Shown here: positions 1-15,050 of the stretch, in pieces | Layout of the letters: every line of letters begins with the position of its first letter | How positions within the stretch are numbered: position 1 is the first letter of the stretch | DNA from: a virus | Taxonomy: Duplodnaviria; Heunggongvirae; Uroviricota; Caudoviricetes | Virus record (IMG/VR): IMGVR_UViG_2713896729_000010 | Location: 1-15,050 of that record | Direction: 5' to 3' (one strand) | DNA: 15,050 bases | Translations under genes and position numbers: made by a program | Notes under the pieces: generated by a model | The model's database searches: none | Seen by the model: the letters and a program-made list of their open reading frames with translations, nothing else | What the model was told of the DNA's origin: nothing

Positions 1-482
1 TTTTTATTTCTCTTTCAGGTGAATAGATCGTTTTTACTATTTTACCCCGCACGAATCATCGTTAAAATCAGATTATAGTGTAGGAATAACTCGTTTTTTA
101 CGAGCAATTAAAGGATTTGCGCCATCAGCGGTGAGATGAGTTTTTGACGGCTGTAAGCGCTAACGGGTGACCCTAAGCCCTGATAATCATAGCTTAAGGT
201 GAGGATTTCTGAGGGATTAATTAGGAAAAGTAATAATTAATTTCTTGTCAGTCGGCGTTATTTGTTAGGACAATATTTCAAAAATAATCCAGCTTGTCGT
301 CAATAATTGCGATAAAGAGATAAATTAAAGTTAAATAATTAAATCATTAAAAAATTACGCCACAAAAATGCGAGGCGTCTTCAGGATTAGAATCGATAAA
401 ACAGAATGGGTTAAAGAGAGCGATATAATAGCGGCGGGTGCTTGAGGCTATCTGTCTCAGGCATTAGCTGAACGGCAGATAG

Positions 483-537
483 AGAAAAGCCCCGAGTGAT
501 ATTTTACTATCAACCCGAGGCCCCCTATATGCTGAAC
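483..537 (-). ncRNA. sokC: Sok-type antisense RNA (approximate placement), antitoxin of the hok/sok type I toxin-antitoxin locus
   Basis: Placed only by analogy with the known hok/sok organisation, where the antisense RNA overlaps the mok start (here 529). No promoter or terminator was verified in the sequence, and the coordinates rest on remembered E. coli K-12 positions. Confidence 0.3.
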
Positions 538-738
538 ACATGTAGAGTGCCTCTTACTGACCGTAAGGTCAAGGAGAAGAGAGCAATGAAGCAGCATAAG
601 GCGATGATTGTCGCCCTGATCGTCATCTGTATCACCGCCGTAGTGGCGGTGCTGGTAACGAGAAAAGACCTCTGTGAGGTTCACATCCGAACTGGCCAGA
701 CGGAGGTTGCTGTTTTCACGGCTTACGAATCCGAGTAA
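529..738 (+). CDS. mokC: MokC, overlapping in-frame leader ORF that regulates hokC translation
   Basis: ATG at 529 in frame with hokC and sharing its stop; translation MLNTCRVPLTDRKVKEKRAMKQHK... The track ORF 496..738 is the same frame from an upstream GTG. Confidence 0.65.
   Translation: MLNTCRVPLTDRKVKEKRAMKQHKAMIVALIVICITAVVAVLVTRKDLCEVHIRTGQTEVAVFTAYESE
586..738 (+). CDS. hokC: Hok/Gef family small membrane toxin (50 aa)
   Basis: Translation MKQHKAMIVALIVICITAVVAVLVTRKDLCEVHIRTGQTEVAVFTAYESE matches the Hok/Gef family as I recall it: single transmembrane helix followed by the conserved RKDLCEV..RTG..EVAVF..YE motif. Confidence 0.9.
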   Translation: MKQHKAMIVALIVICITAVVAVLVTRKDLCEVHIRTGQTEVAVFTAYESE

Positions 739-818
739 GAGCAACGGCGGGGAGTGATCCCATAAGCGCTAACTTAAGGGTTGTGGTATTACGCCTGATA
801 TGATTTAACGTGCCGATG

Positions 819-828
819 NNNNNNNNNN
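819..828. other. N10 run, assembly gap or contig join
   Basis: Ten consecutive N. Flanking sequences (hok locus versus phage gpW) are not collinear in any genome I know. Confidence 0.9.
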
Positions 829-1839
<1,011 letters not shown>

Positions 1840-1915
1840 AACCCTTGCTGCGTCTGGAATGTCGTTTTCCATGCTTTTGATGACCGTTCATCACCCTTCC
1901 AGTTTTTCGCGGTTT

Positions 1916-1970
1916 TGTGTATTGCAATGTGTATTGCAAATTGGCGATCGGGATGGGTGTGTATTGCAAA
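1916..1970 (+). repeat. Three direct copies of GTGTATTGCAA, candidate integrase arm-type binding sites
   Basis: tgtgtattgcaa (1916-1927), tgtgtattgcaaa (1928-1940), gtgtgtattgcaaa (1957-1970), between the core and the int start. The same motif recurs near attR. Confidence 0.6.
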
Positions 1971-1987
1971 TCTCTTGAGGGCTTTTA

Positions 1988-3229
1988 ATGGCTATTGAAA
2001 ACAAACTCAGTGACAAACTGTTAAAGAGTCTTGTCGGAAAACGGCAGGACAAACAAAAAACAATAGCGGATGGGCGCGGGTTGTCTGTGCGTGTAAGCAT
2101 GGTTGGGGGGATCAGCTTTGTTTTTTACTATCGTCTTGGTGGCAGGGAATCCCCTCCGGTATGGCTTACACTTGGTCGCTATCCTGACATGTCTCTTGCA
2201 ACGGCCAGGCGCATGCGTGATCAGTGCCGTGAATGGCTGGCTGAAAATCTGGACCCCCGCAGGCAAATAAAACTTGCTGCCGAAAAAACTATGCAACCAG
2301 TGACCGTAAGGGATGCGCTGTTTTACTGGTACGACAATCACGCCACAACAGCCAGAAAAGAGCATGAATATTTAATAAAACGATTTGAAAAGCATATCTT
2401 CCCCTATATCGGTGATATGGCTATAGAACAGTGCAAATTACACACATGGCTTACCGTCTTTGACAGGATCAAAAAAAATGCGCCTGTTATGTCTGGTGCA
2501 ATTTTTCTTGATATCAAACAGGCGTTGCGTTTTTGTCGCGTCAGGCAATACATCGCGTGCGATCCCTTTGGAGATATTAACGTAAGTTATGTCGGGCGCT
2601 CATCCGGTATAAGGGATCGCGTTCTTAATATCAATGAAACCGCTGATGTATGGTCTTATGCTTACGGTAATAATTTGCTAACTCTGTCATCAATATATAA
2701 CCGAAGAATAATGGTTATCTGCCTGGTGTTTGGTTGCCGACAGCAGGAGGCGAGGCTATCCACCTGGGACGAATGGGATTTAAAAAACTGGGTATGGACA
2801 GTCCCAAAAGAGCACAGCAAAAACAAGGAGGCTATAGTAAGGCCTGTTCCTGACGGAATAAAACAATGGATCGTTAATCTTTACGCAGAAACAAAAAATC
2901 GCGGTTATGTTGTCGGTTGTGCTTTGCAAAGGGCGACAATAACAGGGGCTGCAAACAGAATATGCAGGCGTCTTGGTCATGATACTAATGGCTTGTGGTG
3001 CATACATGATTTCAGGCGCACATTTTCCACTACGCTTAATGATATGGGGGCGGATCCTTATATTGTCGAACTTCTTTTAGGTCATAAAGTGAAAGGGGTT
3101 GCTGGTGTTTACAATAAAAGCAGGCATATAAAGAAAAAACTTGAGGTGCTTAATATGTGGGTTAATTACCTTAATACGATAGCAGGATTTAACAACAACG
3201 TTATCGAGCTTAATAAAGAGGTGGTGTGA
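1988..3229 (+). CDS. int: Tyrosine site-specific integrase, P4-like family
   Basis: 413 aa. N-terminal arm-binding-like region (GRGLSVRVSMVGGISFVFYYRLGG...YPDMSLATARRMRDQ). C-terminal catalytic motifs CRQQEA (R), HDFRRTF (HxxR) and GVYNKS (Y nucleophile). SD gaggg 6-7 nt upstream of the ATG. Confidence 0.95.
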   Translation: MAIENKLSDKLLKSLVGKRQDKQKTIADGRGLSVRVSMVGGISFVFYYRLGGRESPPVWLTLGRYPDMSLATARRMRDQCREWLAENLDPRRQIKLAAEKTMQPVTVRDALFYWYDNHATTARKEHEYLIKRFEKHIFPYIGDMAIEQCKLHTWLTVFDRIKKNAPVMSGAIFLDIKQALRFCRVRQYIACDPFGDINVSYVGRSSGIRDRVLNINETADVWSYAYGNNLLTLSSIYNRRIMVICLVFGCRQQEARLSTWDEWDLKNWVWTVPKEHSKNKEAIVRPVPDGIKQWIVNLYAETKNRGYVVGCALQRATITGAANRICRRLGHDTNGLWCIHDFRRTFSTTLNDMGADPYIVELLLGHKVKGVAGVYNKSRHIKKKLEVLNMWVNYLNTIAGFNNNVIELNKEVV

Positions 3230-3230
3230 T

Positions 3231-3488
3231 ATGGCAATTTATTCTCTTGTTGATGAAAACGATTTGCGCACAATGAAGGACATTGATCGGTTCATTCGTG
3301 AAAAAGAGTGCATAGCACTTACCACGCTGGCAAACTCAACACGCTGGAAAATGGAGCAGGCAGGTAAATTCCCGCGACGTATCAAGATCGGTGAACGTGC
3401 TGCAGGGTATCGACTTTCAGAGGTTCAGGCATGGATCCGTGGTGAGTGGCATCCTGGATGGAAACCTGGAAAAACAAAACAGCAATAA
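3231..3488 (+). CDS. alpA: AlpA-family HTH regulator / excisionase-like protein
   Basis: 85 aa. Translation ...IALTTLANSTRWKMEQAGKFPRRIKIGERAAGYRLSEVQAWIRGEW resembles the AlpA/Vis helix-turn-helix. Start is 1 nt after the int stop, so likely translationally coupled. Confidence 0.85.
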   Translation: MAIYSLVDENDLRTMKDIDRFIREKECIALTTLANSTRWKMEQAGKFPRRIKIGERAAGYRLSEVQAWIRGEWHPGWKPGKTKQQ

Positions 3489-3501
3489 CCAGTAAATAAT
3501 G

Positions 3502-3524
3502 CCCCTCATCACGAGGGGTTTTTT
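3502..3524 (+). terminator. Rho-independent terminator after alpA
   Basis: CCCCTC-ATCAC-GAGGGG stem-loop followed by TTTTTT. Confidence 0.75.
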
Positions 3525-3544
3525 GTCTATAAGGTAAAAACGCG

Positions 3545-4123
3545 ATGAATAAAAATATTGCCGTGACGGGCAAGGGGTACGCTCGTCCAGTGAAAAAATT
3601 CTGCGATATTCGTGATCTCGTCGTTCTGCGCTTTGATAGTGTGAACGTTCGTGTGGTGTATCTGAACGGCGATCCGTGGTTTGTTGCAAAAGATGTTTGT
3701 GCTGCGCTGGAACTAACCAATTCGCGTACGGCGTTGCAGATGCTTGATGATGATGAAAAGGGAGTAAATTTAACTTACACCCCAGGAGGAAATCAGAATA
3801 TGAGAATTATCTCTGAGTCAGGTTTCTACAAACTAATAGCCCGCAGCCGCAAAGCAACGACGCCTGGCACATTTGCTCATCGTTTCAGTAACTGGGTATT
3901 CAGAAATGTGATACCAGGTATCAGAAAAACGGGGACTTATGGTATCCCGTGGGGTGCATTACAGGATTTTTCCCGCCGTAAAGAGCAATATCAAATAAGT
4001 GCCAGCGAGAAGGGGAGGGAGCTACAGGCATGTAAGCGCAAAAAGCGTGAGCTGGAGGAAGAAGAAAAAACGCTGATACGTGAATATCAGCCTGAGTTTT
4101 ACTTTGGTAACCGCATTCAGTGA
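3545..4123 (+). CDS. Bro-N domain protein (antirepressor-like), with a charged coiled-coil-like C-terminus
   Basis: 192 aa. N-terminal region VRVVYLNGDPWFVAKDVCAALELTNSRTALQMLDDDEKGV...RIISESGFYKLIARSRK fits the Bro-N fold as I recall it. C-terminus is K/E-rich (KRKKRELEEEEKTL). Confidence 0.75.
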   Translation: MNKNIAVTGKGYARPVKKFCDIRDLVVLRFDSVNVRVVYLNGDPWFVAKDVCAALELTNSRTALQMLDDDEKGVNLTYTPGGNQNMRIISESGFYKLIARSRKATTPGTFAHRFSNWVFRNVIPGIRKTGTYGIPWGALQDFSRRKEQYQISASEKGRELQACKRKKRELEEEEKTLIREYQPEFYFGNRIQ

Positions 4124-4132
4124 CAAAACAAA

Positions 4133-4153
4133 GGCGACCGCAAAAGGGTCGCC
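4133..4153 (-). terminator. Rho-independent terminator for the leftward regulator operon
   Basis: GGCGACC-gcaaaag-GGTCGCC hairpin. The T-run (tttgttttgtca) lies on the minus-strand 3' side, so it terminates leftward transcription; there is no T-run on the plus side. Confidence 0.65.
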
Positions 4154-4219
4154 AGTGGGAACAAGGGAAAACAAAAGCATCACCAACAATGCCACATTTG
4201 CGGCTGGTGGGCAATGTGA

Positions 4220-4399
4220 TCAGTCAGATTTGGTTCGTTCCAAGGTTTGCAACGAGAGCTTTTTCCTGTGCTCTTTAAGGAATTTCTCAAGAGCAAACGA
4301 ACAAGGTGCGAATCTTTCTGATTCATGTTCATGCGCTATATTTTTGCGTCGTCTCTTACGAGTTGGTGATGGTGTTTTGGTTGATTCTGTGTCGCTCAT
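4220..4399 (-). CDS. Small basic hypothetical protein (59 aa), second gene of the leftward operon
   Basis: Not in the supplied track (below its size cut-off). Hand translation MSDTESTKTPSPTRKRRRKNIAHEHESERFAPCSFALEKFLKEHRKKLSLQTLERTKSD. SD AGGA 7 nt upstream of the ATG. Lies between the 101-aa gene and the minus-strand terminator. Confidence 0.4.
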   Translation of the reverse strand: MSDTESTKTPSPTRKRRRKNIAHEHESERFAPCSFALEKFLKEHRKKLSLQTLERTKSD

Positions 4400-4456
4400 G
4401 GTGCTGTCCTGTAAAGCAATGCGCCTGCGTTCCTCAAACTATGGCGCTGATATTGG

Positions 4457-4762
4457 CTATTCATGCTCTTTGACCTTGCGTCGCTGGAGTTCTTCACGCG
4501 CGACGGTGACGAGTTGCCCGATCTCCTCGGCTGCTTTGATGCCGATTTGTTCGACCTTAGCCAGGGCATCCAGTGACGACACAAGGGGATTTTCTCCGCT
4601 GCCTTCTGCTTGGCGGCGGGCTATTTCTCCGCGCATGGCGGTTACGATAAATCCGGCATTGCTTTCACCGTCCAGCTTAACGGATTCCATCCCTTGCATA
4701 ACATCTAGTGGGACTCTGACAGTTGTCAGTTGTGATTTTGCGTTTTTGTTAGCCGTTGCCAT
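4457..4762 (-). CDS. Hypothetical protein (101 aa), candidate island repressor/regulator by position
   Basis: Strong SD AGGAG 8 nt upstream of the ATG. Divergent from the rightward early operon across a palindromic operator. No family recognised from sequence. Confidence 0.7.
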   Translation of the reverse strand: MATANKNAKSQLTTVRVPLDVMQGMESVKLDGESNAGFIVTAMRGEIARRQAEGSGENPLVSSLDALAKVEQIGIKAAEEIGQLVTVAREELQRRKVKEHE

Positions 4763-4823
4763 TTCTGAAACTCCTAATCATCGGTGTGTTTCAGTATACA
4801 CAAAAAAAGAAATACAAAAAGCC

Positions 4824-4861
4824 TTGACGTGTGTTTCATGCGCTCATAACATGAAACACAC
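4824..4861 (+). promoter_or_regulatory. Candidate sigma-70 promoter of the rightward early operon overlapped by a perfect 12-bp inverted-repeat operator
   Basis: -35 TTGACG (4824-4829), 17-bp spacer, -10 TAACAT (4847-4852). Inverted repeat GTGTGTTTCATG (4829-4840) / CATGAAACACAC (4850-4861) with 9-bp spacer. Extra half-site GTGTGTTTCAG at 4784-4794. Confidence 0.55.
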
Positions 4862-4952
4862 CGAAAGGATTGTTGAAATACAAAGAGCAACGCCCCGCAG
4901 TGCTGGGAACACATACGGGGCGTCTAACCAACAACGTAAACTAGGAGCCGTT

Positions 4953-5150
4953 ATGGTTGCTGTAAATCATATACCACACCTTGTACACACACAAACGGCC
5001 TTTGTGTGGCGTTTTCTGGCACTGAGTGCCGGAGAATCTCAAATCATCCACGTAACCGCCTGGACGGAACGCGAAGCGCGTAGCCGTTGCCCGTCCGGTT
5101 GTGTTGCTGTATTCGCTGCAAAAATCCGCCAGGGAGTGAGTCATGCTTAA
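4953..5150 (+). CDS. Hypothetical small protein (65 aa), first gene of the rightward early operon
   Basis: SD AGGAG (4944-4948) 4 nt before the ATG. Translation MVAVNHIPHLVHTQTAFVWRFLALSAGESQIIHVTAWTEREARSRCPSGCVAVFAAKIRQGVSHA. This is the C-terminal part of the track's 4080..5150 ORF, which I reject as a whole. Confidence 0.55.
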   Translation: MVAVNHIPHLVHTQTAFVWRFLALSAGESQIIHVTAWTEREARSRCPSGCVAVFAAKIRQGVSHA

Positions 5151-5328
5151 AACCTTCCGTGTATTTGCCCGAGCTGTTAACCCAATAGGCCACACAATTG
5201 GTATCGCTCAGAATGTGAAGGCTGTTAATGTTCAGACGGCTATTGCTGCGGTGAGAAGCGAATCATCAGAATATGGCTTATCACAAGTCATTATTTCAGC
5301 AGTGTATGAATTAAAAGAGGTGCATTAA
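5143..5328 (+). CDS. Hypothetical small protein (61 aa)
   Basis: Start overlaps the upstream stop (ATGCTTAA); SD gggag upstream. Confidence 0.5.
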   Translation: MLKTFRVFARAVNPIGHTIGIAQNVKAVNVQTAIAAVRSESSEYGLSQVIISAVYELKEVH

Positions 5329-5519
5329 TGCAGGAAATTACATTACACGAAGCCGCTGAACGTGCGCACCAGACAGAAATTATTTGCCGCCTTCTTGAGG
5401 TATACCCGAACAAAATTACAGATGCTGATATATCCGCACTGGCGAGCCTACTGGCGCGTCTTTCGGGAAGTGTCGCTAGTTTTTTGATTGAGGAAGAAAG
5501 TAAGCTGGTGGGGGATTAA
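5328..5519 (+). CDS. Hypothetical small acidic protein (63 aa)
   Basis: TAATG stop/start overlap with the upstream gene; SD aagagg upstream. Confidence 0.55.
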   Translation: MQEITLHEAAERAHQTEIICRLLEVYPNKITDADISALASLLARLSGSVASFLIEEESKLVGD

Positions 5520-5741
5520 ATGAATACAGAACGGGAAGTCTTTTTTAAATTGTTAGCATGTGCAGAAAGTTCATTAACTTTAAATAATTCAGCAAAAGCA
5601 ATATTAAATATGTGGCTTGATTGCATAAATGACAATGAAGATGCAAATATTGCTTATGGCCTGTTGTCACTTATTGATGAATCAGCAGAAAAACTCAATG
5701 ACGCAATAAATAGTGCCCTGCTATCAAATAAGTCGAGTTAA
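5520..5741 (+). CDS. Hypothetical small acidic protein (73 aa) in an AT-rich segment
   Basis: TAAATG overlap with the upstream gene. Local base composition is visibly AT-richer than its neighbours, suggesting a recently acquired cargo gene. Confidence 0.5.
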   Translation: MNTEREVFFKLLACAESSLTLNNSAKAILNMWLDCINDNEDANIAYGLLSLIDESAEKLNDAINSALLSNKSS

Positions 5742-5758
5742 GTCGAGGAATAAATAAT

Positions 5759-6058
5759 ATGGAAATGAAAAATTCTGGCTTTATTGCCAGCGGCCCCGCT
5801 CGACCTGAATTTATGAACGGCGATATTTACCGCGATAAATACGGCGGCACGGTAACGATTAAAGGCGTGGCAGAACGGCGCATCACTTACCGCCGTGAGG
5901 GGTATAGCTATGACTGCGTGATGCCTGTTTATCAGTTCCGGCGTGATTTTCCCCTGGTATATGCCGCACCCCGCAGTAAGCCCATCAGCAGGGAAAAAGC
6001 GTGGGGAAATATCCAGAAAATGAAAACCATGATTAACGGATTCAGAGGTAAAAAATGA
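5759..6058 (+). CDS. Hypothetical protein (99 aa), translationally coupled to the helicase gene
   Basis: SD gagga upstream. Stop overlaps the helicase start (ATGA at 6055-6058). Confidence 0.6.
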   Translation: MEMKNSGFIASGPARPEFMNGDIYRDKYGGTVTIKGVAERRITYRREGYSYDCVMPVYQFRRDFPLVYAAPRSKPISREKAWGNIQKMKTMINGFRGKK

Positions 6059-7809
6059 AACTGGCACCGAACGTAAAACAGCAGTCACGCGGCATAAAAC
6101 ACAAAGGAACAGAAGTCATTATTTTTGCGGGTAGTGATGCCTGGGCACACGCGAAACAATGGCAGGAACATGATGCGCGTATGGCCGGAGATAATGAGCC
6201 TCCTGTGTGGCTTGGGGAGCAGCAGCTATCCGAACTGGATAATCTGCAAATTGTGCCGGAAGGCCGAAAATCAGCACGCATATACAGGGCCGGATATCTT
6301 GCGCCTGTAATGATAAAGGCGATTGGTCAGAAGCTGGCGGCAGCAGGCGTACAGGATGCAAATTTTTATCCTGAGGGTATGCACGGCCAGGAGGTGCAGA
6401 ACTGGCGCGAATATCTGGCCCGTGAACGCCAGAATCTTTCTGATGGTCTGGTCATTGAGCTTCCGGTAAAGCAAAAGGCGCAACTTTCGCAGATGGCGGA
6501 CAGTGAGCGCGCGCAGTTGCTTGCCGATCGCTTTGATGGCGTTTGCGTACATCCTGAAAGTGAAATCGTTCACGTATGGCGCGGCGGGGTATGGTGTCCG
6601 GTCAGCACAATGGAACTTAGCCGCGAAATGGTGGCGATCTATTCAGAGCACAGGGCCACTTTCAGCAAGCGCGTAATCAATAACGCCGTGGAAGCGTTAA
6701 AAGTTATTGCCGAACCAATGGGCGAGCCGTCTGGCGATTTGCTGCCGTTCGCCAATGGTGCGCTTGACCTGAAAACGGGGGAATTTTCCCCGCACACGCC
6801 GGAGAACTGGATCACCACGCACAACGGCATTGAGTACACGCCACCAGCACCAGGGGAGAACATCCGCGATAACGCGCCAAACTTTCATAAATGGCTTGAG
6901 CACGCAGCCGGAAAAGACCCGCGCAAGATGATGCGTATATGTGCCGCGCTGTACATGATTATGGCGAACCGGTACGACTGGCAGATGTTTATTGAGGCCA
7001 CCGGAGACGGCGGGAGCGGTAAAAGTACATTCACACACATAGCCAGCCTTCTGGCAGGGAAACAGAACACGGTAAGCGCTGAAATGACATCGCTTGATGA
7101 TGCTGGTGGACGTGCGCAGGTTGTCGGGAGTCGTCTTATCGTCCTGGCTGACCAGCCGAAATATACAGGCGAAGGAACGGGCATCAAGAAAATCACAGGC
7201 GGCGACCCCGTGGAAATTAACCCGAAATATGAAAAGCGTTTCACGGCGGTAATCAGGGCGGTGGTGCTGGCGACCAACAACAACCCGATGATATTCACCG
7301 AACGGGCCGGAGGTGTGGCACGTCGTCGCGTGATTTTCCGTTTCGACAATATCGTCAGTGAGGCCGAAAAAGACAGGGAGCTACCGGAAAAGATTGCGGC
7401 TGAAATCCCCGTTATTATCCGCCGATTGCTGGCGAACTTTACCGACCCTGAGAAGGCACGGGCTTTACTACTGGAACAGCGTGACGGTGATGAAGCACTG
7501 GCAATAAAGCAACAGACGGATCCGGTTATTGAGTTTTGCCAGTTCCTGAATTTTCTGGAGGAAGCGCGCGGCCTGATGATGGGTGGCGGTGGTGATTCAG
7601 TGAAGTACACGACCAGGAACAGCCTTTACCGCGTCTATCTGGCGTTTATGGCATACGCGGGCAGGAGCAAACCGCTAAACGTGGCTGAGTTCAGCAAGGC
7701 CATGAAGCCAGCGGCGAAAGTTTACGGGCATGAATATATTACGCGAAAAGTTAAGGGAGTAACGCAGACCAACGCAATTACAACAGACGATTGCGACGCG
7801 TTTTTATAA
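6055..7809 (+). CDS. Replication initiator / SF3 helicase (D5_N-like domain plus NTPase, resembling the P4 alpha C-terminal half); no clear primase motif seen in the N-terminus
   Basis: 584 aa. Walker A GDGGSGKST and Walker B-like LIVLADQ. The conserved region before the NTPase resembles the D5_N / P4-family C-terminal domain. Iteron origin immediately downstream. Confidence 0.88.
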   Translation: MKLAPNVKQQSRGIKHKGTEVIIFAGSDAWAHAKQWQEHDARMAGDNEPPVWLGEQQLSELDNLQIVPEGRKSARIYRAGYLAPVMIKAIGQKLAAAGVQDANFYPEGMHGQEVQNWREYLARERQNLSDGLVIELPVKQKAQLSQMADSERAQLLADRFDGVCVHPESEIVHVWRGGVWCPVSTMELSREMVAIYSEHRATFSKRVINNAVEALKVIAEPMGEPSGDLLPFANGALDLKTGEFSPHTPENWITTHNGIEYTPPAPGENIRDNAPNFHKWLEHAAGKDPRKMMRICAALYMIMANRYDWQMFIEATGDGGSGKSTFTHIASLLAGKQNTVSAEMTSLDDAGGRAQVVGSRLIVLADQPKYTGEGTGIKKITGGDPVEINPKYEKRFTAVIRAVVLATNNNPMIFTERAGGVARRRVIFRFDNIVSEAEKDRELPEKIAAEIPVIIRRLLANFTDPEKARALLLEQRDGDEALAIKQQTDPVIEFCQFLNFLEEARGLMMGGGGDSVKYTTRNSLYRVYLAFMAYAGRSKPLNVAEFSKAMKPAAKVYGHEYITRKVKGVTQTNAITTDDCDAFL

Positions 7810-7824
7810 TTTTTTGTAAAAGCC

Positions 7825-8042
7825 ATCTACCCCATCTACCTGAACAAAATAAACGCATATTATTCAACATGATAAGTGGGTATAGGGCTAGGTAGAAGGC
7901 TAATAAAAGCTCTCTACCTCTTCTACCTGATTTTATCAGTTTCAGGTAGCAGGGTAGACGGCAGGTAGAGGAGTCAAAAAGCTATCTACCCGCTGAAAGC
8001 CGCGCCATTACTGACATGATGAGCATTCGGGTAGATGGGTAG
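7825..8042. repeat. Iteron-type replication origin: at least 11 copies of GGTAG / CTACC arranged as inverted clusters
   Basis: ccatctaccccatctacc (7823-7840); ggtag at 7891, 7945, 7953, 7964, 8030, 8038; ctacc at 7914, 7923, 7986. Terminal clusters are mutual reverse complements (catctacc / ggtagatg). Lies directly after the initiator gene. Confidence 0.8.
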
Positions 8043-8157
8043 AGGGGGGGAGGCACAACTAAAAACTTTTTAAACGAGGGGGGGGTGAAAATAAATGCGC
8101 ATACATAAAAATCACTTAATAAACATGCCAGCCGAAAACATGAATCAGGGGCGACAA

Positions 8158-8409
8158 ATGACCAAAATTCGCAGAGACAGAACACAGGCAAAATATAAAG
8201 CGTTAGACATGACAGAGCTTTCCTTAAAGGTGGCAATCAAAGCGATAGACCACCACACACGGGCAGGATACGCGAAGGAACATCCCGACCTGATAAGCGC
8301 ATTCATGACCACAGCAGCGGCAAACTTTGCCACGCTGACAGAACGGGAGATTGCCGAAGCGGAACAGGTGACAACCATCAATGTTAAAACCGGAGAGCAG
8401 ACAGCATGA
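8158..8409 (+). CDS. Hypothetical protein (84 aa; start uncertain, alternative starts at 8139 or 8095)
   Basis: SD agggg 6 nt before ATG 8158. Stop overlaps the SSB-like gene start (ATGA at 8406). Confidence 0.55.
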   Translation: MTKIRRDRTQAKYKALDMTELSLKVAIKAIDHHTRAGYAKEHPDLISAFMTTAAANFATLTEREIAEAEQVTTINVKTGEQTA

Positions 8410-8855
8410 CAGCACAGATAGCGGCTTACGGGCGGCTGGTGGCTGACCCGCAGTTAAAGACCACCAGCAAAGGGACACAAATGGCGATGGCGAGTATGGC
8501 GGTTCCCCTGCCGTGCAGCCAGGCAGATGACGGAACGGCGACGATGTGGTTATCCGTCCTGGCGTTTGGCAGACAGGCCGACGCACTGGCAAAACACCAC
8601 AAAGGCGAACTGGTGAGCGTGGCGGGTAACATGCAGGTAAGCCAGTGGACAGGCCAGAACGGCGAAACGCGGCGGGGCTGGCAGGTTATCGCAGACAGCG
8701 TAATCAGTGCGCGAACGGCGCGACCGGGCGGCAAAAAAGGCCAACAGGGGCAGGCTACTGACGAACTGAACAGAGCAAAACAACAGGCAGATCAGCAAGG
8801 AAGCCAGCCACCAGTGGGAGATAATGAGCAATGGGGAGATGATATCCCGTTTTAA
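8406..8855 (+). CDS. ssb: Single-stranded DNA-binding protein homologue with SSB-like acidic C-terminal tip
   Basis: 149 aa. OB-fold-like N-terminus (GRLVADPQLKTTSKGTQMAMASMAV...WLSVLAFGRQADALAKHHKGELVSVAGNMQVSQW), Gly/Gln-rich linker, and C-terminus ...WGDDIPF resembling the DDDIPF tip of bacterial SSB. Confidence 0.8.
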   Translation: MTAQIAAYGRLVADPQLKTTSKGTQMAMASMAVPLPCSQADDGTATMWLSVLAFGRQADALAKHHKGELVSVAGNMQVSQWTGQNGETRRGWQVIADSVISARTARPGGKKGQQGQATDELNRAKQQADQQGSQPPVGDNEQWGDDIPF

Positions 8856-8873
8856 ATATTGCCAATAAAAAAG

Positions 8874-8897
8874 GCCGGAAAAAATAAATTTTCCGGC
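8874..8897 (+). other. Perfect hairpin between the replication and capsid modules
   Basis: GCCGGAAAA-aataaa-TTTTCCGGC, 9-bp stem. No T-run after it, so not a canonical terminator on the plus strand. Confidence 0.5.
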
Positions 8898-9071
8898 ATG
8901 CTACATAAATCCCGACCAAAGGGAGTGAAGATATTAACACTAATTGTCCGCACTGAAGTTGTCACCCCAAAACTTTATACAACATTGCACTCGGTTGCAT
9001 GTGTTCGCATGACAAATATCGGTGGTAGCATATATCCACAATTATTTTTAATGAATGCAAAGAGGATGCGT

Positions 9072-10112
9072 ATGGTTGATTTATATTCGCCTACTCAGCT
9101 TGTACAGGTGGTTAATGCTGTAGATGTACAAAAACAACTAAATGCGTTGTTTACCAGTTTGTTTTTTACTCGCTCGGTAATGTTTGAATCGCGCGATATT
9201 ATTCTTGATACAATCGACGATCCAAATATCCCAATTGCAGCGTTTTGTTCTCCTATGGTGGGTAGTAAAGTTTCACGTGACGAAGGGTACGAATCAAAAA
9301 CAATTCGTCCAGGCTATATGAAGCCGAAAAGCAGCATTGATCCAAATAAGTTAGCTGTGCGCCCTGCTGGTGTATCACCTGAGCAATACAATGCTTTTGG
9401 GGCACGTAATATTAAAGTTAAACAGGCGATTGTAAATCAGGCTAAAGCTATTCGTGCACGTATTGAATGGCTTGCTGTTCAGGCAATCACAACGGGGAAA
9501 AATATCATTGAGGGCGATGGTATTGAACGTTATGAGCTGGACTGGAATATAAAACCACAAAATATCATCACTCAGTCTGGCGGTACTGAGTGGTCAGGTA
9601 AGGATAAAGAAACTTTTGATCCAAATGATGATATTGAGAGCTACGCAGAATTTAGTGAGGGCGTCACTAATATCATCATTATGGGTGGTAATGTATGGAA
9701 GAAATACCGTTCATTCAGAGCGATAAAAGAGGCTTTGGATACCCGTCGTGGTTCTAATTCCGAACTGGAAACGGCCCTTAAAGACCTTGGTGATTCGGTG
9801 AGTTTTAAAGGGTATATGGGCGATGTTGCGATTGTTGTTTACAGCGGGCGTTATACCGACGAGGACGGAACAGAAAAACATTTCCTTGATCCTGATTTGA
9901 TGGTGCTTGGCAATACGGCTCTTCAGGGGATTGTCGCCTATGGCGGTATTCAGGATCCGGAGCTAATCCGAATGGGGCTGACTAAAGCCGAACTTGCACC
10001 GAAAAACTATATTGTGCCTGGTGATCCGGCTATTGAATATGTGCAGACACATTCAGCACCACAGCCAATACCGGCCCGCATCAATCGTTTTGTTACCGTT
10101 CGCATTGGCTAA
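9072..10112 (+). CDS. Major capsid protein, homologue of lambda gpE
   Basis: 346 aa from ATG 9072 (SD aagagg 8 nt upstream). Collinear similarity to lambda E as I recall it: N-terminus MVDLYSPTQL versus MSMYTTAQL; NIITQSGGTEWSGKDKETFDPNDDIESYA versus NITQSGGTEWSKRDKSTYDPTDDIEAYA; LDTRRGSNSELETALKDLG...GDVAIVVYSG nearly identical. The track ORF starts at an upstream TTG (8859), which I reject. Confidence 0.9.
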   Translation: MVDLYSPTQLVQVVNAVDVQKQLNALFTSLFFTRSVMFESRDIILDTIDDPNIPIAAFCSPMVGSKVSRDEGYESKTIRPGYMKPKSSIDPNKLAVRPAGVSPEQYNAFGARNIKVKQAIVNQAKAIRARIEWLAVQAITTGKNIIEGDGIERYELDWNIKPQNIITQSGGTEWSGKDKETFDPNDDIESYAEFSEGVTNIIIMGGNVWKKYRSFRAIKEALDTRRGSNSELETALKDLGDSVSFKGYMGDVAIVVYSGRYTDEDGTEKHFLDPDLMVLGNTALQGIVAYGGIQDPELIRMGLTKAELAPKNYIVPGDPAIEYVQTHSAPQPIPARINRFVTVRIG

Positions 10113-10121
10113 GGGGGAGCA

Positions 10122-10463
10122 ATGGCTACTCATTACACTGAACTCATGGCTGGCACTGAAGCACTGGTGACTACGCTGGGGATATTTTCAGCTAATAAAG
10201 GGGTAATTCCTGCATTTACGCCACTGATGCAGGAAGATGCAACAGGTGCACTGGTGGTATGGGATGGTTCGAGCGTAGGTAAAGCGGTTTATGTTTCCGC
10301 TGTACAAATCGACACAGCGAAAAAAACACAGGCACAGGTTTATAAGACAGGTGTTTTAAATGTTGATGCTCTGAACTGGCCTGAGTCTGTAAAAGAACTG
10401 TCGGCAAAGGTTGCCGCGTTTGTTGGCTCAGGTATTTCTGTTCAGCCGCTGGCTCGTGTGTAA
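10122..10463 (+). CDS. Head decoration protein, homologue of lambda gpD
   Basis: 113 aa, SD gggggag. Similar to lambda D as I recall it: TPLM..D....LVVWDG...YK.G......WPE......AF.G..IS. Confidence 0.85.
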   Translation: MATHYTELMAGTEALVTTLGIFSANKGVIPAFTPLMQEDATGALVVWDGSSVGKAVYVSAVQIDTAKKTQAQVYKTGVLNVDALNWPESVKELSAKVAAFVGSGISVQPLARV

Positions 10464-10474
10464 AGGGGGATACA

Positions 10475-10858
10475 ATGCAGAATCATTACAATGACCTTAA
10501 GCCAATTGCCGAAATGATGTATCCGGATCCAGCAGTAGAGGAATTAAAGGCTATTGCTGACAAAATGCGTTTAAGTGAACGCCTTGTTGATATGAATCAG
10601 GTGATGGAACTTACTACCCTTAGCCGTCGCACATTGCTAAACCTTGAGGCTAGTGGAGAGTTCCCGGAGCGTGTGCAGGTTACGGAAGGGCGTAAGGCCT
10701 GGTATTTAAGTGAAGTGATCGACTGGATAAACAATATTCCTCGATCTTCTGAATATTGCCGCGTACCTGTCCCAAAAAAGCCAGATGCGGCGCTATGCCT
10801 CAAGATTGAGCGTGTACGTCGCAATGCACGGGATGGTCGCTATAAGTTGATTGGTTGA
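10475..10858 (+). CDS. Second AlpA-family HTH protein (127 aa, with an N-terminal extension), immediately upstream of cos
   Basis: SD aaggggga. Translation ...MELTTLSRRTLLNLEASGEFPERVQVTEGRKAWYLSEVIDWIN is an AlpA-like helix-turn-helix. Confidence 0.7.
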   Translation: MQNHYNDLKPIAEMMYPDPAVEELKAIADKMRLSERLVDMNQVMELTTLSRRTLLNLEASGEFPERVQVTEGRKAWYLSEVIDWINNIPRSSEYCRVPVPKKPDAALCLKIERVRRNARDGRYKLIG

Positions 10859-10884
10859 TGAAATTAGGGCCCGTTCTGGCTGGC

Positions 10885-10948
10885 GGGTCCTTTCCGGCGA
10901 TCCGGTAGGCTACGGGGCGGCGACCTCGCGGGTTTTCGCTATTTATGA
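10885..10948 (+). other. cos site: lambda-type cosN (12-nt cohesive-end sequence GGGCGGCGACCT at 10915-10926) with lambda-like flanks
   Basis: gggtcctttccggcgatccggtaggctacg|GGGCGGCGACCT|cgcgggttttcgctatttatga agrees almost base for base with the lambda cos junction as I recall it. Sequence downstream (10949-11059), where cosB would be, is unlike lambda. Confidence 0.85.
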
Positions 10949-11059
10949 GCCTTTTTCGGGTGCTGGTGGTGGTTTTGTTGTTCGCTCTATCTCTATGAAT
11001 AAAAAGGAAAAGATAAAGCCAATACACCAACCTGAAACATTACTTAAGTGGGGATATTG

Positions 11060-11530
11060 ATGAAATCGCACCTGATGAACAAAAAAAACATGGCGCAAAG
11101 CTGCCGTGTAAGTGCGACAGCGTTCGACAAGTGGGGAGTGACTCCCGTTGAACGTAAAGGCCGCGAGGCGTTTTATGATGTTGCCAGCGTAATAGACAAT
11201 CGGGTTAGCAATGCAATTAACCAGATTACAGACGACAAAGGCGAGATTGATGATGATGAACTCCTACGAGTCAGGATCAGATTGCTGACAGCACAGGCAG
11301 AGGCGCAGGAGCTTAAAAACGAGCGCGAACGCGGCGACGTTATTGATACAGCGTTTTGTATATACGTGCTTTCAAAATTGGCGAGTCAGATTTCTTCAAT
11401 CATGGACAGCCTGCCGCTTGCCATGACAAGGAAGTTTCCCGACATGAAGCCGTCTATGCTGGATGGACTGAAAAAGAAGTTATCAGAGCCTGTAACGCAT
11501 GCGCAAAACTTGACGAAAACATACCGCTGA
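11060..11530 (+). CDS. Terminase small subunit, homologue of lambda Nu1; the C-terminal Nu1-like segment continues in the -1 frame to 11601
   Basis: N-terminal ..NKKNMAQSCRVSATAFDKWGV aligns with the Nu1 N-terminus (NKKQLADIFGASIRTIQNWQEQG). Central block LTAQAEAQELKNERERGDVIDTAFCIYVLSKLASQISSIMDSLPLAMTRKFP is nearly collinear with Nu1 (LTRAQADAQELKNARDSAEVVETAFCTFVLSRIAGEIASILDGLPLSVQRRFP). Start could also be 11075 or 11090. Confidence 0.85.
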   Translation: MKSHLMNKKNMAQSCRVSATAFDKWGVTPVERKGREAFYDVASVIDNRVSNAINQITDDKGEIDDDELLRVRIRLLTAQAEAQELKNERERGDVIDTAFCIYVLSKLASQISSIMDSLPLAMTRKFPDMKPSMLDGLKKKLSEPVTHAQNLTKTYR

Positions 11531-11612
11531 TGCTGTCCGATTATCTGATGGAAACTGCCGGAAACGTACCGGATAAGTTGCAGCCGAATAAAGATAAGTA
11601 ACGTAGTACGCT

Positions 11613-11894
11613 ATGACTGAATCCGAAATACTGCGATTAATCCGCCGTGCTTGTGGAATCAGCAAGCAGCATGACGAACAGGCCACGCAGCCGGACAGCG
11701 TGACCGCAGATAATTATGTGCGTGTAGTGGCTGAGGTGATGCGCCGTGACGGTATTGAGCTTAACGGCGTGGATATGCGCAACATACGAACAAGAGTCCT
11801 TGAGTTGCTGGCATATCGTCGCCGTTCTCAACAACGGAGGGAGAGCGCGAAAAATACTTACCAGTGGAAGAAGCCGGAACGATTGCGGCGGTAA
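11613..11894 (+). CDS. Hypothetical basic protein (93 aa) downstream of the small terminase gene
   Basis: ORF with Arg-rich C-terminus (RRRSQQRRESAKNTYQWKKPERLRR). Weak SD and no recognisable family. Confidence 0.45.
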   Translation: MTESEILRLIRRACGISKQHDEQATQPDSVTADNYVRVVAEVMRRDGIELNGVDMRNIRTRVLELLAYRRRSQQRRESAKNTYQWKKPERLRR

Positions 11895-12146
11895 CTTGCT
11901 GATATTCCCGATAACGCAAAATTGCGCTGGCTGACTTGTTGCATTGCAAAAAGTTAAGCAGGAAGGCACGGCCTGTAAGATGGGATGCAGTAAGTAGTTC
12001 AAGGCTACCTTGTGCTGGCACGCACAGTTAAGCCGTCGGTGCTGGATATCCCCCACTGGGGGAAAAGCTGGCTACATCCCTCACATCTGAGGACTGATAA
12101 CGCGACATTGCGCTGGCTGGCAAAGTGCAAAATTGCACGATGGCCT

Positions 12147-12290
12147 AACCCATTGATTATTTCGAAAACCTGCAATGCAGGAAATCGGGGAAGTAAGCCT
12201 AAGCTATTGATTGTTTCGAAAACCCCCATTGGGGGATGTCGGGAAAGTAAGACTAACCCATTGATTCTTCCACAATCCTCAATTTGAGGA
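12147..12290. repeat. Tandem ~54-bp repeat, 2.7 copies, each with a different 13-bp palindrome
   Basis: Conserved unit (C/G)C(C/T)ATTGATT.TT.C.A.AA.CC followed by cctgcaAtgcagg (12169-12181), cccccaTTggggg (12223-12235) and cctcaaTttgagg (12277-12289). Confidence 0.75.
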
Positions 12291-12608
12291 GGCCGGAACG
12301 TCTACATAGCTGCATCGCCGTAATGATGATTCAGCCCACCAGCCAAATCAGCACAGCAACGACAGAATAGCCCGACACAGAAAAACCACGAATATGGGGT
12401 TTTTGTTATGACATGGTCATGATGACCACTCATACAAAACAGGTAAAGCCCACCAGCCTGATTAAAGGTTAACCGGAAAAAAGCCAGGTATCCAATCTCG
12501 ATATGGGGATCCCTATATCGACATTAACGCCCACTAAAACTGTGCATATATGCATAGAAAAAGCATCCACCAGCTTTATGACGGATGCCGCTCATCTTAT
12601 AAATAATC

Positions 12609-12630
12609 GTGTATTGCAGTGTGTATTGCG
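12609..12630 (+). repeat. Two further direct copies of the GTGTATTGC(A/G) arm-type motif near attR
   Basis: gtgtattgca (12609-12618) and gtgtattgcg (12621-12630), about 75-95 bp from the right core, same orientation as the three copies near attL. Confidence 0.6.
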
Positions 12631-12703
12631 ACTCCTTTAAACGATAGGTCTGAGCATTCGTAATGTACTGTTTTTAAATTTTATTTTTTCCTGTCTTTTC
12701 ATA

Positions 12704-12716
12704 AAGGCGATGTATG
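12704..12716. repeat. attR core (right copy of the 13-bp direct repeat)
   Basis: AAGGCGATGTATG; phage-identical sequence continues rightward (gtatgccgccaccattgag). Confidence 0.8.
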
Positions 12717-12933
12717 CCGCCACCATTGAGAGTGAGCTGGATACGCAGTCAGCGATGGATTTTATTCTGGGCGCGAACAGTCAGGAGCAGCGGGAAAGGC
12801 TGACCGGCTGGATTGGTGAAATTGCCGCGTATTACGCCGCAGCGCCGGTCCGGCTGGGAGGCGCAAAAGTACCGCACCTGATGCCGGGGGACTCACTGAA
12901 CCTGCAGACGGCTCAGGACACGGATAACGGCTA
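12704..12933 (+). CDS. B: lambda-type portal protein B, continuation after the island (truncated at the N10 gap)
   Basis: In frame from the core: KAMYAATIESELDTQSAMDFILGANSQEQRERLTGWIGEIAAYYAAAPVRLGGAKVPHLMPGDSLNLQTAQDTDNG, matching the region of lambda B that follows ...QSAIVKA. Confidence 0.9.
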
Positions 12934-12943
12934 NNNNNNNNNN
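12934..12943. other. N10 run, assembly gap or contig join
   Basis: Ten N; flanks are portal gene versus a glutamate decarboxylase fragment. Confidence 0.9.
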
Positions 12944-13063
12944 ATCGGCCTGGAATTTATCCAGCGCATCGTGCAGCGGTTGTGGGAACTCATAGTTACC
13001 AGTGTAGGTCACGCCGAAAGTCGGCACCACGCCGATGGTGTTTTCGTCACAGGCTTCAATCAT
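12944..13063 (-). CDS. Internal 40-codon fragment of glutamate decarboxylase (GadA/GadB-like), isolated between two N10 runs
   Basis: Minus-strand translation [40 protein letters not shown] matches an internal segment of E. coli Gad as I recall it. Confidence 0.6.
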
Positions 13064-13073
13064 NNNNNNNNNN
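13064..13073. other. N10 run, assembly gap or contig join
   Basis: Ten N. Confidence 0.9.
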
Positions 13074-13673
<600 letters not shown>

Positions 13674-13683
13674 NNNNNNNNNN
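13674..13683. other. N10 run, assembly gap or contig join
   Basis: Ten N; the J frame does not continue across it. Confidence 0.9.
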
Positions 13684-15050
13684 ATAACGCGTCCGCAGTG
13701 GCACAGAACACGGCAGCCGCAAAGAAGTCAGCCAGCGATGCCGGCACATCTGCCCGTGAGGCGGCAACCCATGCAACCGATGCTGCAGGCTCAGCACGTG
13801 CCGCCAGCACGTCAGCCGGACAGGCTGCATCATCTGCTCAGTCAGCATCTTCCAGCGCAGGAACGGCATCAACAAAGGCCACTGAAGCATTAAAAAGTGC
13901 TGCCGCTGCAGAGTCCTCAAAAAGCGCGGCAGCCACCAGTGCCGGTGCGGCGAAAACGTCAGAAACGAATGCCGCAGCATCACAACTATCAGCAGCCACT
14001 TCTGCATCCACCGCGACCACGAAGGCGTCAGAAGCTGCCACCTCAGCCCGGGATGCGGCGGCCTCAAAAGAGGCAGCGAAATCATCAGAAACGAACGCAT
14101 CATCAAGTGCCAGTAGTGCAGCTTCCTCGGCAACGGCGGCAGGAAATTCCGCGAAGGCCGCAAAAACGTCTGAGACGAATGCGGATAACAGCGCACAGGC
14201 GGCAGCAGACTCACAAACTGCATCGGCAAACTCCGCGACAGCCGCCAAAAAATCAGAAACCAACGCGAAAAATAGCGAGGCAGCAGCAAAGAGCAGCGAA
14301 ACAAACGCTAAAGCCAGCGAAACTAATGCTAAATCCAGTGAAACAAACGCGGCGAAATCTGCGGCGGACGCACTTAATTATCGCAACCATGCTCAGGGTA
14401 TTGTTGGTGCTAACATCGGTTTGGGATCATCACCGCGCAATTGTCCTGATATTTCCGGTGATCCATCCGGTTATATTGGCTTTATGCGCATTTTTGCTTC
14501 CGCAACAGGTTTTCCGTCTATTGCATCAGGCGAAGGTAATCTTACTGGTTTTATTAGTCAGGTAGATGGAACACCAGCGTATACAGGTGTATTTCAGGGA
14601 TGGACTACTCGCTCGCTTTATACCTATCGCTGGAGTCCGACAATAGGCCCGCAATGGACACGCCACGCTCGCAAAAATGAAGTGGACCGTCTTGACCAAT
14701 TGAATAGCGAAACATGGTTATATAACCATGATAAATCCATGCGCCTGGGTTTAACCGCCTCATCATGGGGTTGTTACAGCGATACACAAAAAAAATGGAT
14801 ACCGCTTGATGTTTCTCATGGTGGCACTGGCGCGGCAACTATTGATGGTGCCAGAACTAATCTTGGATTAGGCAGGGATAACAGCCCTCAGCTTAATAGT
14901 CTATTTCTCGATAGGACTAGTGATTCTACTGGCGCATACACTACTGGCGGGATGCTCCATACGAGACTGTTAGCAAATGATAACACTGTGCGCCTTGCCG
15001 CTGATATGTATGTTCAGACTTTTCCAAATGAGCAAGGTCGATTAACAATA
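13684..15050 (+). CDS. stf: Side tail fiber protein (lambda Stf family), partial at both ends, with an Ala/Ser-rich SETNA repeat region
   Basis: Open frame (codons from 13686) with no stop to the window end. Repeats AKTSETNAAAS, AKSSETNASSS, AKTSETNADNS, KKSETNAKNS, KSSETNAKASETNAKSSETNAAKS, then a globular region (..NYRNHAQGIVGANIGLGSSPRNCPDISGDPSGYIGF...). Not in the track because it lacks a start and stop inside the window. Confidence 0.85.

Follow-up and report, generated by a model that had tools for sequence, protein, structure and literature searches.

A putative immunity and early-control switch in an Escherichia coli phage satellite: a proposed YlcI/YnfO-family repressor, its putative operators and a predicted cis-antisense RNA

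What holds the rightward genes of a phage satellite in check, and what releases them, is the question raised by a divergent region at positions 4220–4952 of a 15,050-nucleotide stretch of DNA (positions 1–15,050 of the IMG/VR record IMGVR_UViG_2713896729_000010), which we refer to here as the window. The window is an Escherichia coli Gram-negative phage-inducible chromosomal island (PICI), a phage satellite, embedded in a prophage portal gene. Two leftward open reading frames (ORFs), rhh and orf59, encoding proteins of 101 and 59 residues, face there a rightward operon headed by a Kil/Icd-like gene. With moderate confidence, we favour a model in which the region is a satellite immunity and early-control switch comprising a ribbon-helix-helix (RHH) repressor, a cis-antisense RNA and a frame open to translational read-through, as judged from this DNA and its relatives. 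The repressor/operator part of this model is well supported. Positions are in window numbering, unless a relative's locus (L-number) is named.

Between the two divergent units is a perfect inverted repeat, in which GTGTGTTTCATG at 4829–4840 is complementary to CATGAAACACAC at 4850–4861 across a gap of 9 nt, as seen both by direct reading and by a repeat search; the 12-bp repeat described in the original prediction is thus confirmed as stated. With up to three mismatches allowed, the window holds a single instance of the pattern and 200 shuffles hold none. The extra half-site earlier placed at 4784–4794 is present and is better than claimed: the repeat search finds a third copy, TCGGTGTGTTTCA, at 4781–4793, complementary to 4852–4864 at 13 of 13 positions. 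Within the island, all three sites with at most one mismatch from GGTGTGTTTCA fall in 4783–4862, and positions 4815–4875 of the window form an extended imperfect palindrome. The inverted copies overlap the single rightward promoter called by a consensus scan, P_R, at the place where a candidate −35/−10 pair had been proposed. The features of the control region and of the genes on its two sides are as follows.

4781–4793: O_L, the third operator copy TCGGTGTGTTTCA, abutting the P_L −10 and covering the expected P_L start site
4826–4840 and 4850–4864: O_R1 and O_R2, the inverted operator copies, overlapping the P_R −35 and flanking or overlapping the P_R −10 and start
4775–4870: stretch that holds the three putative operator copies, in shorthand form GTGTGTTTCA
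4824–4852, plus strand: P_R, sigma-70 promoter TTGACG-N17-TAACAT (consensus scan), with an expected start near 4859, serving the rightward operon (Kil/Icd-like gene, primase and onward)
4793–4798, minus strand: P_L −10 TATACT for rhh, with a weak −35
4771–4775, minus strand: rhh Shine-Dalgarno AGGAG, read from the sequence and kept in relatives
4457–4762, minus strand: rhh, the proposed repressor, a 101-residue RHH protein of the YlcI/YnfO family, with a predicted strand-helix-helix at about residues 10–54 and a long helix at residues 59–100
4943–4947, plus strand: Shine-Dalgarno AGGAG of the Icd-like gene
4953–5150, plus strand: Icd-like gene, encoding a 65-residue homologue of P4 Kil (NF033153, E 1.2e-17; RefSeq), first of the rightward operon

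The rightward promoter has counterparts with the same 17-nt spacer, called at the same position relative to the repeats, in L021 (TTGACA/TAAAGT) and L002 (TTGACG/TAACAT). On the leftward side, a P_L −10 (TATAAT, TATACT or TATATT) is found at the same position in nearly all of the 24 loci compared below, despite the differing operator next to it. Weighing against P_L is the consensus scan, which makes no call there, and the want of a good −35.

Neither leftward protein had been thought to resemble a known repressor family, which proves incorrect for the 101-residue protein. It matches the NCBIfam model NF041551 (YlcI/YnfO) over residues 9–50 with 63.3 bits against a cut-off of 30 (E 1.6e-17), the identical protein is named as YlcI/YnfO family in RefSeq, and 216 homologues are found across the Enterobacterales, some of them named 'Arc-like DNA binding domain' in UniRef. 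Structure prediction, which had been proposed as a check, does not leave the protein an orphan: an AlphaFold2 model (21 sequences, mean pLDDT 80) has an extended N-terminal segment followed by helices at residues 19–28, 35–54 and 59–100. The N-terminal strand and two helices within about 45 residues that define an RHH domain are thus present, followed by a long helix. Pfam gives nothing above threshold for this protein, with the RHH families (Arc, RHH_1, CopG and similar) unmatched and PSK_trans_fac (E 0.022) and DUF5610 (E 0.016) below threshold, and a sequence profile search of the PDB returns no RHH protein. We regard the predicted RHH fold as a good assignment, not one beyond doubt. A helix-hairpin-helix reading of residues 45–86 (containing SSLDALAKVEQIGIKAAEEI; weak match to archaeal Hef, 1x2i, E 0.009) was dropped, as this segment is one continuous helix in the AlphaFold2 model. 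A tblastn search with the RHH protein against 50,697 phage records gives no match, and PADLOC assigns no defence or toxin family to it, to the Icd-like protein, to orf59 or to their neighbours. Natural short forms of 59 residues cleanly lack residues ~52–93, which marks the C-terminal helix as an optional module; where present, it probably joins RHH dimers.

Which protein reads the repeats is addressed by comparison of the regions upstream of each homologue, aligned for 24 usable loci out of 13 collected from other genera and 12 from diverged E. coli. Common to all 24 is a scaffold that runs, in order, through a site, about 9–13 nt containing the P_R −10, a second site, the TTGAC −35, a T-rich stretch, the P_L −10 TATA(A/C/T)T, a third site, the Shine-Dalgarno and the start codon. 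On this scaffold the TTGAC −35 and the TATAMT −10 are constant across specificity classes, and the sites vary between loci together with the residues that follow a conserved K-S-Q in the N-terminal strand. About 12 such pairings are found, including the following, given as strand residues and site.

LTTVRVP: GGTGTGTTTCA (E. coli, Xenorhabdus, Photorhabdus)
MTTVRIP: GGTGTATTTCAC
SLTARIP: GGTGTAAG (E. coli, Enterobacter soli)
KKLEARVP: GGTGTCAGCCAC
ALKARVP: GGTGTGGYCCAC
TVAARVP: GGTGTTRAACAC
QLNARFP: TGGTATTCA
QINARFP: TGGGATTCA
IKNVRVP: GGTGTGCATYC
LKNIRIP and VKNVRIP: GTGTGTATTTA

That repeats and N-terminal strand change together while the promoter scaffold does not is evidence for a repressor/operator switch that comes in immunity types. 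Some loci have the repeats inverted and others have them as direct copies; both arrangements are usual among RHH proteins of which one dimer binds to each repeat. From the co-variation and the geometry, we infer that the 101-residue protein represses P_R through O_R1 and O_R2, and it probably autoregulates through O_L, which abuts the conserved −10 of its own promoter P_L. In the proposed mechanism, the repressor would bind the three copies of GGTGTGTTTCA as dimers, probably joined through the C-terminal helix; the two inverted copies, bracketing the −35 and −10 of P_R, would shut off the Kil/Icd-like gene, the primase gene and the late operon, and the third copy, on the P_L start site, would provide autoregulation.

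The repeats might instead be bound by another product of the island, namely AlpA, the BRO-N protein or, as iterons of a replication origin, the primase. Gram-negative PICIs are known to have AlpA as their master regulator (PMC10111431, PMC11773190), and the origin of P4 has short repeats bound by the P4 primase, according to the P4 annotation. However, the repeat sequence follows the N-terminal strand of the RHH protein and not the neighbouring genes: one and the same strand/site pair is found beside differing alpA, bro/ant and primase types (BRO-N, AntA/B, DUF927, RepA-type), so these proteins are unlikely binders. PICI origins are, moreover, reported downstream of the primase gene (PMC10111431). 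We consider binding by one of these other proteins very unlikely.

Several further observations concern the operators and the position of the repressor gene. Next to the promoter-distal operator, L002 has an additional short palindrome of the type CCTTGA..TCAAGG (2882–2907), flagged as terminator-like by the scan; it recurs at the same place in L004, L006, L021, L024 and L025, and the window lacks it. Outside the island, in DNA of the helper prophage, GGTGTATTTCA (14586–14596, plus strand) differs by one mismatch from the operator half-site and equals the half-site class of L026, probably as a chance occurrence (about 0.2 expected). At the YlcI/YnfO spot, E. coli O157:H7 EC4115 has an unannotated ORF of 57 residues beginning MSTPLEKRSPPYQMRLPEDF (L023 1750–1923, minus strand), with a weak Pfam match to Arc (E 0.038) and two CATGGTAATTACC repeats upstream (L023 1921–1966). 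This strain retains the antisense-RNA element described below and the Icd-like gene; the PGAP annotation there places an 'Icd-like pseudogene' on the opposite strand. The presence of an Arc-like ORF in place of the YlcI/YnfO gene points to exchangeable repressor cassettes at one position.

Downstream of rhh on the minus strand are the second leftward ORF and a terminator.

4220–4399, minus strand: orf59, encoding a possible small basic/helical protein
4133–4153, minus strand: intrinsic terminator of the leftward genes, GGCGACCCTTTTGCGGTCGCC followed by TTTGTTTTGT, with stem GGCGACC/GGTCGCC (7 pairs, 6 of them G-C)

Both ORFs and the terminator of the leftward two-gene operon described earlier are thus present, and the basic cluster noted in the smaller product is there as RKRRRK; what does not stand is orf59 as a constant partner of rhh. 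Homologues of orf59 are confined to Escherichia (29 clusters, 63–100% identity), where they share a conserved core, EHESERFAPCAFALEKFLKEH, with in-frame indels and variable ends. Its ratio of non-synonymous to synonymous polymorphism (pN/pS) is 0.19–0.6, compared with 0.29–0.66 for the mirrored plus-strand frame, with which it shares wobble positions. PGAP annotates it in some genomes, not in the identical counterpart of the window; it matches phrog_21027, nothing in Pfam reaches threshold, and its AlphaFold2 model, of moderate confidence (pLDDT 67), has a basic tail and helices. It is probably a real accessory gene outside the core switch.

A pair of small leftward genes with repeats upstream also invites a type II toxin-antitoxin reading, in which the RHH protein would be an autoregulating antitoxin, orf59 its toxin and the repeats a means of autoregulating the pair only. 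Yet the conserved toxin that is always paired with an RHH antitoxin in such systems is not found here. Beside the RHH gene, orf59 is missing in 12 of 12 loci from other genera, some of which have alpA directly next to it, and a strain devoid of this RHH gene has orf59; the ORF matches no toxin or defence family in Pfam, NCBIfam or PADLOC. The −35 and −10 that two of the three repeats bracket belong to P_R, not to P_L, and the 59-residue short forms of the RHH protein are without any C-terminal partner-binding region. Such a toxin-antitoxin pair is, in our judgement, extremely improbable. As for the immunity region originally proposed, a divergent repressor and operators are supported by comparative evidence from about 12 classes, the structured leader is better read on the other strand, and orf59 is not a constant partner.

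Returning to the switch with an RHH repressor, a second layer is suggested by the stretch that separates the operators from the first rightward gene. The stem AACGCCCCG/CGGGGCGT, earlier noted in the rightward leader, is present at 4889–4923 and proves to be one of two hairpins that co-vary; the signal, however, lies on the strand opposite to the one proposed. We interpret these hairpins as a cis-antisense RNA with the following parts.

4880–4959, minus strand: proposed cis-antisense RNA of ~80 nt, both ends inferred
about 4958–4926, minus strand: stem-loop 1, with an anti-Shine-Dalgarno in the loop and the complement of the start codon in the stem
4924–4889, minus strand: stem-loop 2 (the stem noted earlier), followed by a U-rich tail
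4966–4971, minus strand: candidate antisense −10, TATGAT, inside codons 5–7 of the Kil/Icd-like gene
4989–4994, minus strand: possible antisense −35, TTGTGT

In an alignment of 23 sequences of this stretch, 89.7% of the cells in 17 pairs of the two hairpins are paired, against 24–40% when the partners are slid; compensatory changes occur in 9 of the 17 pairs, and the observed values are reached in none of 500 shuffles. Watson-Crick covariation alone is compatible with either strand, and the hairpins lie between the expected P_R start (~4859) and the start codon (4953), with the Shine-Dalgarno included in stem-loop 1. The switch could therefore be real and the hairpins act in the rightward mRNA leader, stabilizing the 5′ region or masking the ribosome site, with no antisense RNA involved; that neither a leftward promoter nor a terminator is called at the hairpins by simple scans also fits such a leader. 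Against it stand the strand bias and the energies. In 29 cells the change gives A·C or C·A on the plus strand, equivalent to G·U on the minus strand, and in one cell G·U on the plus strand. The RNAalifold consensus is −26.7 kcal/mol with 21 pairs for the minus strand and −6.8 kcal/mol with 11 pairs for the plus strand, and the window sequence folded alone gives −33.5 kcal/mol (z −4.07) on the minus strand, against z −0.92 for the plus-strand leader. A −10-like hexamer (TGGTATGAT, TGGTATAAT, TATGCT, TAGACT or TACTAT) is, furthermore, found in all loci 4–10 nt upstream of the start-codon complement, often of the extended type and within codons about 3–7 of the rightward gene, and the minus strand retains it despite changes in the residues encoded there (His-Thr, Ser-Thr or Ser-Asn, for example). 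We consider a role confined to the mRNA leader unlikely.

The covariation with its G·U strand bias and the consensus energy favour a minus-strand RNA, and the reading of the two-hairpin element as a leftward cis-antisense RNA of ~80 nt that would block translation of the first rightward gene is fairly well supported by these comparisons. Several points weigh on the other side. Common descent, not independent change, accounts for many of the 29 G·U cells on the minus strand. The antisense promoter is not called in the consensus scan and is without a good −35; the U-rich tail that follows stem-loop 2 has interruptions, and no terminator is called at 4889–4923, which makes the 3′ end of the RNA uncertain. 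The two hairpins could instead be the 5′ part of a longer rhh transcript. In the antisense model, leftward transcription from a promoter that lies within the opening codons of the Kil/Icd-like gene would yield an RNA that pairs with the Shine-Dalgarno and start codon of that gene, so that leaky P_R transcripts would remain untranslated and, by analogy with P4 kil, would be prematurely terminated.

A covariance model built for the minus strand matches at the same position in the relatives searched, including EC4115, which lacks the YlcI/YnfO gene; P4 has no copy by this model. L020 carries a second full-length element (1907–2004, minus strand, 77 bits) ~870 bp upstream of the first, inside a rightward open frame of 607 codons that is antisense to three leftward genes. 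Rfam returns no relevant match for the two-hairpin element on either strand, whether for the whole window or for 4100–5200 at E up to 10, and these scans rule out a C4, isrK or sok-type identity for it.

The first rightward gene lies at the end of a much longer frame.

4080–5150, plus strand: long open frame of 356 codons, in phase with the Kil/Icd-like gene and opening in the 3′ end of the BRO-N gene

The link of its last 65 codons to P4 Kil runs through NF033153 only, which P4 Kil (65 residues) matches with E 1.6e-21; a pairwise BLAST of the window Icd-like protein against P4 Kil gives no alignment, and tblastn of the Icd-like protein against the 50,697 phage records gives one match. Upstream of this gene, the frame is antisense to orf59 and rhh and crosses the whole intergenic region. 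Over the 190 nt of the latter, the long frame has 0 stops and the other two frames have 3 and 6, an openness with P 0.02–0.06 in shuffles. In 16 of 24 loci the frame continues in phase into the Icd-like gene, and in 6 more it ends 17–28 nt short of the start codon; among 15 representatives of operator classes, 13 have it open to within 30 nt of the Kil/Icd start, for which shuffles give 0.013–0.062 per locus.

Other features of the frame tell against its being kept open by selection. The composition of rhh and orf59 makes an open frame across them unsurprising (P 0.66 and 0.40, synonymous shuffling), L007 and L011 have early stops in the long frame, and its product upstream of the Icd-like end looks like antisense junk. 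No Pfam domain, and specifically no Ash domain, matches the long ORF, and its residues 1–291 are without a PHROG match. The idea that it is a degraded Bro or Ash gene was discarded, there being no family upstream of the Icd-like end in PHROG or Pfam. That translatability itself is what selection keeps in the long frame is a tentative suggestion from these counts and the least secure step of the model.

As a third layer, alpA-bro transcripts made after helper induction would be translated through the region in phase with the Kil/Icd-like gene, in the manner of P4 eta, and such read-through translation would escape the repressor, the antisense RNA and polarity and would oppose expression of the repressor. 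Rightward transcription is not stopped at 4133–4153: on the plus strand, no T-run follows the stem of the leftward terminator, which reads as a terminator on the minus strand alone. DNA binding and repression, the ends of the RNA and its effect on its target, and read-through from the alpA promoter are all predictions of the model. In its strongest form, which we hold to be doubtful, the rightward ORF of 350 or more codons, with the repressor gene antisense inside it, would be open only so that ribosomes can ride AlpA-driven transcripts, translation overriding the RHH repressor and the antisense RNA and converging transcription silencing the repressor gene.

The setting of this region is a satellite island inside a prophage gene. 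The window DNA is 100% identical to many E. coli RefSeq chromosomes, and part of the switch region is matched in 1,865 of 5,426 complete E. coli genomes. In NZ_CP006834 the annotated island, of ~10.8 kb, splits the portal gene of a lambdoid prophage into two halves and carries genes for an integrase, an AlpA-type regulator, and BRO-N, YlcI/YnfO, Icd-like, DUF4222 and primase proteins, followed by a single-stranded DNA-binding protein, a major capsid protein, a decoration protein, a second helix-turn-helix protein and a small terminase. The gene content given by Pfam, NCBIfam and PHROG scans agrees with this annotation, with Pfam matches in the window for the integrase, AlpA and the D5_N primase.

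~1840–12650: satellite island, interrupting the portal gene and carrying its own major capsid, decoration and small-terminase genes
958–1839 and ~12674–13456: pseudogene halves of the portal gene, bordering the island

As in Gram-negative, helper-embedded PICIs, int, alpA and the primase gene run in one direction, phage late genes stand at the far end, and the insertion is in a prophage late gene, an arrangement described by Tommasini, Mageeney and Williams (PMC10111431) with which the NZ_CP006834 island agrees. The same source describes Gram-negative PICIs as essentially unidirectional and AlpA-controlled, puts P4-type immunity RNAs in a 'Bro zone' and mentions no leftward repressor gene. Elsewhere in the window, Rfam model RF01794 (sok/CssrC) matches in full length at 436–588 (plus strand, 122 bits, E 4.8e-28), inside the large terminase gene of the helper prophage as annotated by RefSeq in the identical region, an unusual location for a hok/sok antitoxin RNA. 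A second AlpA/excisionase-like helix-turn-helix gene (10475–10858, plus strand; phrog_2790), 33% identical to the island AlpA over 57 residues, lies between the decoration and small-terminase genes.

Control of such satellites is currently described as activation by AlpA or, for P4, as an RNA repressor (PMC10111431, PMC11773190). In the literature searched, YlcI/YnfO proteins as repressors, operators in Gram-negative PICIs and this antisense RNA are undescribed, an absence that is not proof of novelty. A large proportion of the Enterobacterales carry Gram-negative PICIs and P4-like satellites. If the model is correct, the uncharacterized YlcI/YnfO family would gain a likely function, an undescribed antisense RNA would be added, and one fixed position in satellites would host interchangeable cassettes for immunity, namely YlcI/YnfO RHH types, an Arc-like ORF and C4 RNA. 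Incompatibility or immunity groups would then be predicted among co-resident satellites, and a set of small, orthogonal repressor/operator pairs would be on offer. Should the read-through layer also hold, the region would be a three-layer switch (protein operator, cis-antisense RNA and translational read-through) with many immunity types, which would account both for the silence of Gram-negative PICIs and for their being switched on by AlpA.

How the region relates to known switches depends on the part considered. The SaPI Stl proteins, master repressors of Gram-positive PICIs, are divergently transcribed helix-turn-helix proteins. The window is like a SaPI in that a divergent repressor would hold the satellite replication and packaging operon off until a helper phage acts, but Stl, as a helix-turn-helix protein, is unrelated to RHH proteins, and the published description of Gram-negative PICIs has them activated by AlpA and running essentially in one direction (PMC10111431).

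With immI of phages P1 and P7 (c4 RNA, icd, ant), the window shares an Icd-family gene as the first one translated and an antisense-acting RNA that targets a ribosome-binding site. In P1, the C4 RNA comes from the same strand, upstream, and works in trans on the transcript that contains it, whereas the window RNA is predicted from the opposite strand and has no C4 match.

The immI region of phage P22 comprises the RHH repressors Mnt and Arc, the divergent promoters Pmnt and Pant, the antisense sar RNA and the antirepressor Ant. Here too, a small gene for a predicted RHH repressor is divergent from the operon it would repress, operators overlap back-to-back promoters, a short antisense RNA is proposed over a ribosome-binding site in that operon, and an antirepressor-type gene (BRO-N/Ant) is nearby. 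The window differs in that its protein is without a Pfam Arc match and has an extra long C-terminal helix, its operon is one of satellite replication and late genes headed by a Kil/Icd homologue rather than arc-ant, and its BRO-N gene is upstream on the other side, outside P_R control.

The immunity region of P4 has the promoters PLL and PLE and the CI RNA of the C4 family, with seqA/isrK. Shared with it are the order of an alpA/vis homologue, a long ORF, a nested 65-residue Kil/Icd-like gene and a primase operon, a constitutive-looking promoter inside the long ORF, and an RNA that would act on the leader and ribosome-site region. In P4, an ORF of 214 codons (8168–8812) contains the isrK and C4 elements; its last 65 codons match NF033153 and the remainder is a Pfam Ash domain (P4 Eta against PF10554, E 4.5e-23). 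This eta/kil pair is described in PMC10111431, after Forti et al. 1999. In the window, likewise, a 65-residue Kil/Icd gene is the first gene and forms the end of a longer in-phase ORF that contains the early promoter and could be translated. The window differs from P4 in having a protein repressor gene antisense in the long ORF, a proposed cis-antisense RNA and no Ash domain, and P4 has neither an RHH gene nor a match to the antisense-RNA model. Rfam finds C4 and isrK in P4 and in L022 and neither in the window, even at E up to 10. In L022 (1750–2684), the short 59-residue RHH form, direct-repeat operators, the antisense element, isrK (2253–2329), C4 (2351–2438) and the Icd-like gene stand in a row, a protein immunity layer and a P4-type RNA layer in series, with isrK/C4 downstream of the RHH operators. 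That one locus combines all of these shows the layers to be modular. The window itself has neither the Arc/Mnt match that would place it with P22 immI nor the C4/isrK elements and Ash domain that would place it with P4 eta/kil; it resembles P22 immI in its logic and the P4 eta/kil immunity region in its ancestry.

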